Origin: a virus
Lineage: Duplodnaviria; Heunggongvirae; Uroviricota; Caudoviricetes
Reading direction: 5' to 3' (one strand)
IMG/VR virus record: IMGVR_UViG_2684623059_000003
Location: 1-41,037 of that record
Length of the DNA stretch: 41,037 nt
Shown here in pieces: positions 24,001 through 27,000 of the stretch. Position 1 is the first letter of the stretch. Each line of letters starts with the position of its first letter. The position numbers are program-made.

Positions 24001-27000
24001 CTCTGATGCGCAACCGACGACGACCAGCGGCAATATCATCACGCAGAGCATCATTTTCAGCTTTCGCATCAGCTAATTCCTTTGAATATTTTGCATCGAG
24101 TGCAGCAACGTCACGCTGGCGCACCTGCATATCAGTAATGATCGCCTCTGCCAGTTTCAGCTCTCTGGCATTGTCATCGCGTTGTGTTTTGTAGGTAATG
24201 GCGTTATCGCGGTAATGATCTGTTGCCAGCCACAGAGCACTACAGACCATCAGCAGGACAATAATCACGCCATACAGAATCCGGTTCATTTCACCACCTG
24301 CGTATCTGACCGATGAAATAACCGGAGCCCATAACCACAAACACCAGCCAGATAAGGATGAACTTCCAGGTGGATAATTTTTCAGCCATCACTCGAATCT
24401 CCAGAATCAGTTTGCTAAAATCAAACACGTTTTCTCCTTTAGCTTTCCCATGGGCAGAAAACAAAACCCCGCTTGCTGCCAACAAACGGGGTTTTTGCTT
24501 TTATTCACTTCCTTTTGCCAGTTTGCAGAATATCGTGTTATCCGCTTGTGTGAGCAAACGGCATTTTTCAGCAAAATATTCTGCTTATCTGTCGATCCCC
24601 CAGCACACCAGCGCACTCTCCTGGTCACGACGAATAACCTGACCGTAACAGTTATTTGAACGAATGCGGCAATCACGGCCACCGTCCTTAATCCACCAGC
24701 GAATCGCCTCGCATGCGCCTTTACGATCACCGGCATTCAGCCGCTTATAAAACGTCGACGGGAAACACTTACCGGGGCCAATGTTATAGGGACAAAATGA
24801 CGCAATACCTGCTTTCTGTGGTTCGGTCAGTGGCACTTTAATATTGCGCTCCACCCATGCCAGCGCCTTATCCCGTTCAATGGCATTAACCTGATCGCAT
24901 TTTTCCTTCGTCAGTTTCATGCCAGGAATAACAGGCTTACCATCCACCATTGTGGCACCACGACAGATGGTCCATATGCCAGAACCATCACGGTATGCCG
25001 TTGTGTGGTTACCTTCTTTTTCATCCAGAAACTGGTCAAGTATTTGAGGAGCAGACGCGCCTGCAGCAATCAGCGCCAGAACGGCAGCTGACAGGCCGTA
25101 TTTGATTTTTACGTTCATGGATATTTATCAGGATTTATCGGCTTCAAATCCCCGGATATGTTAAATCTTACCTCACCAGTGATGGGCACTGGCGGGATGA
25201 GGATGTCAATCTGATAAACACAGAGGCGACTATGGATTACACAAATCTACCAAAACAAACTTTTGCTGATTTAATCGCACTCAGGCAAGCAGTCGTAGCT
25301 CTAATCAACTTGTTGCCGGAGAAGGAAAAGGAATTAGTTAAAGCGCTTCTTAACAGAACTGCCGCCGATTTTTCATCATATCCACTGACAGATGACCTTG
25401 CGGACCTTCCTGAATTAATTGCAGCGTCCGCCAATAAGCTTACTGAAGAGATTTACCCTCCTCAAAAATCTTCACAAAATTCCTGCGAGTAACTTCAATG
25501 CAATAATCGTAAAACGCCGCAAACTGCTCATCGCGGCGTTTTTTTTCATCTTCAGAAGGAATCAGCACCGACAATTTTTTATTCAGATCAGCGACGCTGC
25601 CCTCCAGTTTTTCAATGGGCGATTCAATATCATCTTTTTCTGACCGCAATGCCGTCGGTGGCGTCTTCAGAGAACCAGTAATTCTTCCCGGTAGCTTTCC
25701 TTTGTAGGTTATCCACACATTCTGCGCCTCTAAAATTATGGGGCGCTTTTCCGGCGACAGCTCATCCCCTTCACATAACCCGGCAGCAACATCCAGGAAG
25801 ACCTGTCTGATGCTCCTTCTGGCTGCTGCCTCATAAAACTCCAGCGCGGCACCTTCAACACGGTCCAGCGAGATGTCCAGGTCAAAAATTTCACCGTCAA
25901 AGCGTTTTTTGTCCCGTAACGCTAAAGTTACCGTAACTTTATTCTCAAAATTGCGGATCCCTTTCACAATCAGTTCATAGTTTTGAGTCATTGAATTACT
26001 CTCCCCGCGCAGCCTTACGCTTGTCTTCTCTGATTTTGAAGTACAGATTTGTCAGATAAGTCAGGAAGCCCAGAACCAGACTCCCCAGCACACCAATCGC
26101 AGCCCACTGTGACGGACTGACCTGATCAAGCCACTGTAAAAACCAGTAGCCAGCACTGCCTGCGGAGGTGCCGTAGGCAATGCCCGTTGAAATTTTGTCC
26201 ATGGATTTCATAGCCTCACCTCCGCAAATAACGGATGGCGTAGTTTTACACTGAGAGATGAAAGGGATTTGAAAAGAAAAGCCCGCAAAAGCGGGCGAAA
26301 CGGTATCTACAGTAAGGAAAGCACTCTATCCAACAAACCACCCACAGTTAATCGGAATAAAAGCAGAGTGCTTATGAATGATCGCCTGCCCGAAGATTGG
26401 TATTTCTGCACAGCAATTTTGCAAAAAAGACGCTCATTCATAACCCAAACGTCTTTCAGTCACTCCGGGCTTTCCCATCATCGCAGACTGAAAGACTCTA
26501 ACTGGAGCGGGCAGCGGGAATCGAACCCGCATCATCAGCTTGGAAGGCTGAGGTAATAGCCATTATACGATGCCCGCATATGGTGCCGACTACCGGAATC
26601 GAACTGGTGACCTACTGATTACAAGTCAGTTGCTCTACCTACTGAGCTAAGTCGGCGCTGGTTCCTCGGGTGTGAATGAGATGCCCGGATACATAATTTA
26701 CCCTTCCCTCGGAACCGCAGAGATAATACAAATAAATAACCAGAATTCAATATTTGCTTATTCGTCTGTCGAAAAAGTCAGCAGACTGAAAGACCGGTAT
26801 TCACAACCACCAGCGCGTTTAACGTCCGGTGCTGTTTTTCGGACATAAAAAACCCGCTTAGTGGCGGGCTGTAAAAATTCTTCTAACGTCAGACATAAAA
26901 CGCCCATCGTTAGGGCAAACTTACCACAGATTCCGGAAAAATCAACCTTGTTATCTGGTTACCTTTTTTAACTGCCGCTCCGCCCATGCCTCTTCAATGT

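Follow-up and report, generated by a model that had tools for sequence, protein, structure and literature searches.

Organization of the locus

The DNA analyzed here, which we refer to as the window, comprises positions 1 to 41,037 of the IMG/VR record IMGVR_UViG_2684623059_000003 (Caudoviricetes), and our subject is a pair of adjacent transfer RNA (tRNA) genes within it, coding for tRNA-Thr(UGU) and tRNA-Gly(UCC), together with the conserved RNA segment that follows them. The element in the window is a lambda-like, Qin-like lambdoid prophage, and the pair sits between its late-gene switch and its lysis genes. In the 41-kb window ARAGORN detects two tRNA genes and no more; they are on the minus strand with 3 nucleotides (nt) between them, and both score above the Rfam RF00005 gathering score of 29 bits. 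A preliminary description, made from the sequence alone, had placed tRNAs of these two isotypes on the late strand, 3 nt apart, between a tR'-like terminator and the holin gene. This placement was confirmed, with Q (PF03589), the terminator and the holin gene (PF04971) all lying on the minus strand. The order on that strand is DUF968, RusA, Q, the tR'-like terminator, the tRNAs, a second strong terminator, a P21-type holin, DUF1327/YdfR, lysozyme and Rz. The features from Q to the holin gene are the following.

26951-27772, minus strand: Q antiterminator gene, 273 amino acids (aa), PF03589 Antitermination protein Q (E=1.8e-51); start of the late leader
26851-26870, minus strand: tR'-like intrinsic terminator, AGCCCGCCACTAAGCGGGTT followed by a T-run (terminator scan)
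26767-26845, minus strand: post-tR' leader segment, conserved in many lambdoid prophages and containing the upstream copy of a repeat
26781-26794, minus strand: upstream copy of the repeat (14-mer), GTCTTTCAGTCTGC on the minus strand; a lineage-specific variant in a conserved leader segment
26723-26750, minus strand: putative sigma-70-like promoter, TTGAAT, 16-nt spacer, TATTAT (promoter scan, 9 of 12 matches)
26660-26716, minus strand: leader hairpin, GGTTCCGAGGG ... CCCGAGGAACC, ending 3 nt before the 5' end of tRNA-Thr (read from the sequence)
26581-26656, minus strand: tRNA-Thr(UGU) (ARAGORN; Rfam RF00005, 73.8 bits)
26503-26577, minus strand: tRNA-Gly(UCC) (ARAGORN; Rfam RF00005, 64.9 bits)
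26451-26496, minus strand: trailer helix 1, located 6 nt past the CCA end of tRNA-Gly and made of a 13-bp stem topped by an apical GGG/CCC stem; the downstream copy of the repeat forms its 5' arm
26372-26443, minus strand: trailer helix 2, a long-range stem UUAUGAAUGAGCG / CGAUCAUUCAUAA around an inner hairpin (RNAalifold)
26321-26371, minus strand: trailer helix 3, formed by a long hairpin GCACUCUG...AGAGUGC in which a GGGUGGUUUGUUGG segment is invariant (RNAalifold)
26271-26296 (26281-26296 in the predicted fold), minus strand: intrinsic terminator closing the tRNA-trailer unit, GCCCGCTTTTGCGGGC then TTTTCTTTTC (terminator scan)
25996-26211, minus strand: class II (P21 S-type) holin, the first lysis gene downstream (PF04971, E=1.4e-35)

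The resemblance of the two genes to host thrU and glyT, pointed out in the preliminary description, extends to full-length identity: tRNA-Thr is identical to Escherichia coli K-12 thrU at 76 of 76 positions and tRNA-Gly to K-12 glyT at 75 of 75. The genes are thus exact copies of the only Thr(UGU) and Gly(UCC) genes of the host, so that gene dosage is doubled for the tRNAs reading ACA/ACG and GGA/GGG. Given this identity to single host genes, what the pair supplies is more dosage, and neither new decoding capacity nor resistance to anticodon nucleases. As had also been suspected, the arrangement is not that of the host tufB operon. The thrU and glyT sequences of the host operon thrU-tyrU-glyT-thrT-tufB are the same as those in the window, but the window lacks tyrU, thrT and tufB, has a 3-nt spacer between its two genes, and aligns with the operon on neither flank. 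Capture of a segment of the host operon was considered and rejected, since alignment with K-12 4175199-4175859 gives identity only inside the two tRNA genes and the flanks are unrelated. A promoter-like match at 26589..26562 (TCGGCA-16-TATAAT) was dismissed as chance because it lies inside the tRNA genes, with its -10 element in the D-loop of glyT.

A conserved structured trailer

The tRNA-Gly gene is followed by a trailer of ~225 nt (26268-26502, minus strand) that reaches from its CCA end to the intrinsic terminator. It had been noted beforehand that a short repeated motif downstream of the tRNAs can form a long hairpin. This hairpin, helix 1, in which GUCUUUCAGUC (26496..26486) pairs with GACUGAAAGAC (26461..26451) on the tRNA-sense strand, is part of the minimum-free-energy fold and is conserved as RNA. 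Among the 17 distinct variants compared, the share of paired cells is 98.9%; two neighboring pairs have changed on both sides (U:A to C:G and C:G to U:A), and five further pairs show a one-sided change that always gives G:U, a pattern compatible with transcription of the RNA from the tRNA-sense strand and not from the opposite strand.

Application of RNAalifold to 25 distinct trailers predicts 64 pairs in four domains, namely helix 1, helix 2 with its inner hairpin, helix 3 and the terminator. When the predicted structure was compared with controls in which the 3' partners were slid by 1-3 columns, 99.1% of cells were paired against 38-45% in the controls, 11 pairs showed compensatory double changes against 0-4, and the covariation score was 0.164 against 0.04-0.06. 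Helix 2 contributes four pairs with compensatory double changes (98% of cells paired) and helix 3 contributes three (100% of cells paired), and the terminator stem co-varies to CCUCGC/GCGAGG in a clade of trailers like that of phage HK639.

The distribution of the trailer was followed among loci by nhmmer. In all 90 sequences that contain the trailer, it begins directly after a glyT-like 3' end (model position 1). The combination of glyT and trailer is present in 518 of 5426 complete E. coli genomes and the trailer in any context in 523-530; a query made of glyT and the first 83 nt of the trailer has a median of one place per genome over 5421 genomes, consistent with the single host glyT. Carriers amount to ~10% of complete E. 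coli genomes; prophages of Shigella and Citrobacter have the trailer as well, as do two cultured phages, HK639 and phi467, the latter an Stx2f (Shiga toxin) phage. Strains AMSHJX01 and ESBL 15 are among those whose tRNA-Gly and trailer sequence is identical to that of the window. Conservation covers the full length of the trailer even in the divergent HK639 clade, whose downstream lysis genes differ.

A search of the spacer between Q and the holin gene against Rfam 15 at E<=1 returned no family for the trailer other than a 15.6-bit match over the terminator only. This match was set aside as chance, and so were the remaining Rfam matches in the spacer apart from the tRNAs (a Plastid-ycf2 antisense tRNA-like match and weak Trp/Phe-leader matches over the tR' terminators). 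Strings of the trailer sequence had no match in searchable papers, and literature searches for HK639 brought up nothing relevant. That the downstream copy of the repeat supplies the 5' side of helix 1, in a conserved trailer RNA absent from Rfam, is the sole new point at the locus, and the conserved structured trailer is a modest new lead.

Two observations concern the trailer sequence itself. A 15-codon open reading frame (ORF) within it (MMGKPGVTERRLGYE) was rejected as coding, being frameshifted in the HK639-like clade. In HK639 (NC_016158.1, about 44363-44516; our locus L137, 1637-1790), an unannotated tRNA-Asn(GUU) precedes a decayed glyT-like pseudo-tRNA, which has a diverged 5' half and retains the UCC anticodon loop; then come the trailer and an annotated terminator, the whole lying between a Q-like gene and a holin gene.

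One possible role for such a segment would be confined to its own transcript: helix 1 could cap the 5' end left by tRNA excision against 5'-end-dependent decay of the late mRNA by RNase E, and the terminator could insulate the holin gene from transcripts without Q modification. A stable hairpin 6 nt after the CCA end and a strong terminator about 60-70 nt before the holin start codon are what such a role would call for, and without the terminator any transcription from the promoter-like element upstream would run on into the lysis genes. On the other hand, a cap and a terminator do not need ~150 nt more of conserved, co-varying helices (helices 2 and 3), and the trailer is linked to the tRNA-Gly gene and not to any particular holin, so we regard a purely cis-acting trailer as possible but rather unlikely.

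A second interpretation is that the trailer belongs to an undescribed family of structured RNAs that would be co-transcribed with the tRNAs, would be released by tRNA processing through RNase E and would act in trans, as a small RNA or sponge of the kind derived from a 3' external transcribed spacer (3'ETS); it might then bind Hfq and regulate host or phage transcripts, with the tRNAs serving as a processing scaffold. Several features are in keeping with this: the trailer in every case follows the last tRNA directly and is closed by an intrinsic terminator that has a U-tract, its multi-helix covarying structure contains invariant stretches that are unpaired or apical (for example GGGUGGUUUGUUGG), HK639 has kept it in spite of the decayed glyT-like gene, it is kept before different downstream lysis genes, and small RNAs of the Q-holin region are an established class in lambdoid prophages (PasA, PasC and PasD). 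Against it, the U-tract is interrupted (UUUUCUUUUC), the covariation stems from few independent events, the 225 nt and four structured domains far exceed 3'ETS-leuZ in size, and conservation could equally mean a role in cis, such as transcript stability or insulation. We consider a trans-acting trailer doubtful.

3'ETS-leuZ, reportedly described by Lalaouna and colleagues in 2015, is a sponge-type small RNA that is excised from the 3' external transcribed spacer following the glyW-cysT-leuZ tRNAs in their operon. Like it, the trailer in the window spans the distance from the last tRNA to the intrinsic terminator of the operon; unlike it, the trailer is ~4 times longer, has four helical domains and no sequence similarity, and is known from its sequence and predicted fold.

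PasA, PasC and PasD (EcOnc13, 51 and 52) are small RNAs in the Q-holin region of lambdoid prophages of enteropathogenic and enterohemorrhagic E. coli (PMC8550237; preprint 10.64898/2026.05.13.724894). They too are non-coding RNAs of the region from Q to the holin gene with intrinsic terminator ends, PasA and PasC beside the holin gene and PasD beside Q. In contrast to the trailer, PasA is an 85-nt RNA antisense to its neighbors and PasD a 172-nt RNA next to Q, and neither is attached to a tRNA. Identity of the trailer with PasA, PasC or PasD was rejected on the basis of its different orientation and of the absence of a match to the partial sequences that are published. If the trailer proves to be a stable RNA, the idea of small RNAs derived from tRNA spacers would extend to prophages, and a widespread element, present in Stx2f phages among others, would join the regulatory RNAs of the region from Q to the lysis genes.

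The flanking repeat

The motif that forms the 5' arm of helix 1 recurs upstream of the tRNAs, and the preliminary description had drawn attention to it as a 13-mer on both sides of the pair. The 13-mer, CAGACTGAAAGAC, is indeed exact and occurs exactly twice in the window, at 26484-26496 and 26782-26794; the coordinates first given were off by 1 and 4 nt, and the exact repeat is really 14 nt long (GCAGACTGAAAGAC, at 26483-26496 and 26781-26794). When the 739-nt spacer between Q and the holin gene was shuffled 2000 times with its dinucleotide composition preserved, two of the shuffled sequences contained a direct repeat of 14 nt or longer, indicating that the repeat exceeds chance when the window sequence alone is considered.

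This invites the view, put forward in the preliminary description, that the two copies are a functional pair, either marking the ends of a tRNA cassette that was captured or is mobile (as would a target-site duplication or a recombination scar) or serving as matching RNA processing sites. The exact 14-nt repeat brackets the promoter-like element and both tRNAs, it is rare in the shuffled sequences, and the breakpoint of homology with an Stx2f phage lies near its upstream copy. Absence of the repeat from relatives with the same tRNAs had been named beforehand as the outcome that would count against this view, and the repeat is in fact absent in most of them, for which reason the view fails. Among 19 loci that have only the Thr and Gly genes and enough upstream sequence, the upstream copy is exact in four; elsewhere it is degenerate, other loci of this type having GTCTTTCAGCTTG, TTCTTTCATCTTG or CTCTGTAATTCTG at the same position, with 8 to 11 of 13 positions matching. 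In ~100 longer arrays (Ile-Lys/Arg-Thr-Gly), the upstream segment is replaced by tRNAs and the downstream hairpin is kept. At one locus (L017) the upstream copy is exact and the downstream copy mutated, showing that the two copies do not co-vary.

The upstream copy belongs instead to a leader segment with a much wider distribution. By blastn, 2149 of 5426 complete E. coli genomes contain the post-tR' segment, with identities of 80-93% and as many as seven copies in a genome, and it is present in O157 and Stx2 prophages that lack the Thr/Gly tRNAs and have ileZ/arg tRNAs or none nearby. In relatives without the Thr/Gly pair, the usual form of the motif is GTCTTTCA(G/A)CTTG, an 11 of 13 match, and its exactness in the window amounts to three lineage-specific substitutions, which could be chance or micro-conversion. 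No similarity beyond the repeat was seen between the two sides. Scans of IMG/VR and of JGI metagenomes for exact patterns gave no match to an empty site or deletion junction in which the leader is fused to helix 1, although diverged junctions could escape such scans. The two copies of the 14-mer therefore do not work together as a pair: the downstream copy makes up one side of trailer helix 1, the upstream copy is a lineage variant of an unrelated leader segment, and the flanking repeat is a lineage-specific coincidence. We regard the functional-pair interpretation as largely refuted already and as highly improbable. As a separate observation, the same 80-nt post-tR' segment precedes a 65-aa ORF in 933W-like phages.

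Prophage tRNA arrays and codon usage

A scan of IMG/VR, together with E. coli loci, for the thrU-TAT-glyT junction yielded 125 loci. The most frequent architectures are Ile2(CAU)-Lys(UUU)-Thr-Gly (54 loci), Ile2-Arg(UCU)-Thr-Gly (31) and Thr-Gly only (20), with a few loci of other types. Thr(UGU)-Gly(UCC) is thus the constant 3' core of a modular prophage array in which Ile2 comes first, then Lys or Arg, then Thr and Gly, and all four slots decode A-ending minor codons. The array occupies the same location in related E. coli prophages, the majority of which have the Ile2-Lys form and others the Ile2-Arg form, and prophages with only Thr and Gly include JP538 and Stx2f prophages. Among GTDB species representatives, the junction is found in E. 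coli and Shigella flexneri, with three copies each, and in Citrobacter braakii. The shared 3-nt spacer argues that the pair has been inherited as a unit within phages and not captured repeatedly. The form seen in the window, in which a promoter-like element and a leader precede Thr and Gly, is rare, being present in 16 of 5426 complete E. coli genomes.

The pair and its arrangement are ordinary and already described. The Stx2f phage phi467 has been published with a tRNA-Thr and a tRNA-Gly adjoining the S gene, in a comparison of Stx phages (PMC7366253), and its pair is the identical Thr-TAT-Gly unit with the same trailer, at 94% identity. Because the phi467 pair is published and RefSeq annotates such genes routinely, the tRNA pair is not new and represents little as a discovery. 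It has the attributes of a late-leader tRNA array, lying between Q/tR' and the holin gene in the orientation of the late genes and reading codons that the host uses rarely and that occur at raised frequency in the phage. The late-leader tRNAs of Stx and other lambdoid phages (ileZ-argN-argO of 933W-type phages, and Thr and Gly of phi467) are likewise on the late strand, after Q/tR' and before the lysis genes, and read minor codons. The window differs from these in having no toxin gene and in the promoter-like leader that takes the place of the Ile2 and Lys/Arg tRNAs. The paper on phage SfIV reports no tRNAs.

Slot 2 of the array, directly 5' of tRNA-Thr, contains one homologous body with an unusual C1 start (CCGCCAC...GGTGGCGG; IMG/VR loci L002, L011, L036, L049 and L093), whose anticodon varies by locus between UUU (Lys, 54 loci) and UCU (Arg, 31 loci). 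Decayed forms of it also occur, one read as UAA (Leu), one as UUA (L093, resembling an ochre suppressor) and five with an abnormal anticodon loop. This variation looks like anticodon switching within one phage tRNA lineage. The core itself is altered in E. coli EPSSH018 (NZ_CP125889.1; locus L006, 2704-2779), where a single chimeric tRNA replaces the pair and has a Thr(UGU) body that continues into the Gly T-arm and the 3' strand of the Gly acceptor stem, apparently through a deletion between the GTTCGATTCC repeats common to both T-arms. ARAGORN calls the chimera tRNA-Thr, RefSeq leaves it unannotated, and its acceptor stem is expected to be mismatched.

Codon usage was compared between the 46 ORFs of the window and a single 50-kb core region of K-12, with the same crude ORF caller applied to both. 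ACA and GGA are the codons that these two tRNAs serve best. ACA is used 15.3 times per 1000 codons in the window versus 5.5 in K-12 (2.8-fold, p<1e-10) and GGA 14.5 versus 6.3 (2.3-fold, p<1e-10), and in the AT-rich ORFs at 1-3347 the excess of each over K-12 is 4-5-fold. The suggestion in the preliminary description that the tRNAs may support translation of AT-rich cargo fits these figures and is plausible, and the figures also agree with the view that tRNAs of temperate phages compensate for codon bias. In the left-end ORFs at 1-3347, the G+C content is 0.34-0.42 and the frequencies of ACA, GGA, ATA and AGA are 20-36 per 1000 codons, much higher than in the remainder of the prophage; these ORFs are likely the AT-rich cargo that would profit most from minor tRNAs.

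It may be asked whether the tRNA genes have any selected function in the phage, since they could be neutral hitch-hikers left from an old capture of host DNA. Their identity to host genes and the lack of added decoding capacity would suit such an origin, as would the existence of decayed versions (the EPSSH018 Thr/Gly chimera, the pseudo-Gly of HK639 and the degenerate slot-2 tRNAs). Yet hundreds of prophages keep both genes and their junction intact, and at the 125 loci 80 of the Thr copies and 100 of the Gly copies do not differ from K-12 while their flanks diverge by 5-25%. In addition, the array consistently gathers tRNAs for A-ending minor codons, and such codons are enriched in the prophage. 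Neutral hitch-hiking is accordingly very unlikely in our estimation. With its Thr-Gly core and its swapping Ile2 and Lys/Arg slots, the modular array forms a clean natural series for the question of codon compensation in temperate phages.

Proposed transcription as a tRNA operon

The putative promoter between the post-tR' segment and tRNA-Thr has an A/T-rich upstream region and a G+C-rich discriminator (CTCTGCGG), and in the diverged version of an Stx2f phage its hexamers stay promoter-like (TTGAAC and TATGAT). The hairpin in the leader is kept in eight of eight distinct leader-type relatives. In a blastn search with 26657-26845, the promoter part (26657-26766) matched only a handful of prophages, and no source in a host tRNA operon was revealed. 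A 15-codon ORF in the leader (MYPGISFTPEEPAPT, with a Shine-Dalgarno-like GAGGGAAGG; 26657-26701, minus strand) runs into the tRNA-Thr gene and is probably not coding, because its ATG is lost in one relative (L033). The unit, compact and equipped with both a promoter-like site and a terminator of its own (GCCCGC/GCGGGC plus a T-run) within the late operon, recalls the morons of phages, units of promoter, gene and terminator that, like this one, are present, absent or swapped among otherwise similar prophages. It differs from them in that the cargo is stable RNA and not protein, and in that its promoter is putative.

The explanation that accounts best for the locus, and one that we consider probable, is that a small tRNA operon lies inside the late leader of a Qin-like lambdoid prophage, with copies of thrU and glyT, a structured trailer and a terminator before the holin gene, and that the repeat is non-functional. 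Under this explanation, the operon would be transcribed with the late genes once Q lets RNA polymerase pass tR', and in this rare variant its own promoter would probably also be active in the lysogen. Transcripts made without Q modification would be expected to stop at the terminator before the holin gene, which would keep the lysis genes silent. RNase P and RNase E would then excise the tRNAs and leave a trailer whose 5' end is capped by helix 1. From the codon bias we infer that the tRNA pair may benefit translation, and the trailer may be a stabilizing and insulating element.

Several points weigh against this small-operon explanation. The promoter at 26750..26723 is a match to the consensus only, at 9 of 12 positions, and the common relatives with four tRNAs have no promoter-like site between tR' and the first tRNA, so independent transcription is not general to the family. 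The reference used for codon usage is the single 50-kb region with its crude ORF caller, and ATA (4.1-fold) and AGA (5.5-fold) are also enriched in the prophage, which is without the Ile2 and Arg tRNAs of its relatives. Since these codons are enriched more than ACA and GGA and yet the tRNAs that read them are missing, tRNA content and codon demand match imperfectly. Finally, nearly all double changes in the trailer split the HK639-like clade (five sequences) from the rest and hence represent few independent events.

Other features of the prophage

Relatives of the Q gene carry the label 'antitermination protein' in RefSeq, and the stem of the tR'-like terminator is kept among relatives, with compensatory changes. 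Elsewhere in the window, Rfam identifies a DicF small RNA at 36462-36513 on the plus strand (76.7 bits) and a sok antitoxin RNA at 30170-30325 on the minus strand (122.1 bits), the latter beside a hok-like ORF. Both are typical for defective prophages of the Qin type, and it is their presence that marks the window as a Qin-like lambdoid prophage. Between the holin and lysozyme genes lies a gene for a DUF1327/YdfR-family protein (25440-25991, minus strand) of 183 aa, compared with 104-116 aa for the YdfR proteins of relatives. The Pfam DUF1327 profile (93 positions) covers only residues 1-112 of this protein, leaving a C-terminal extension of ~70 aa.

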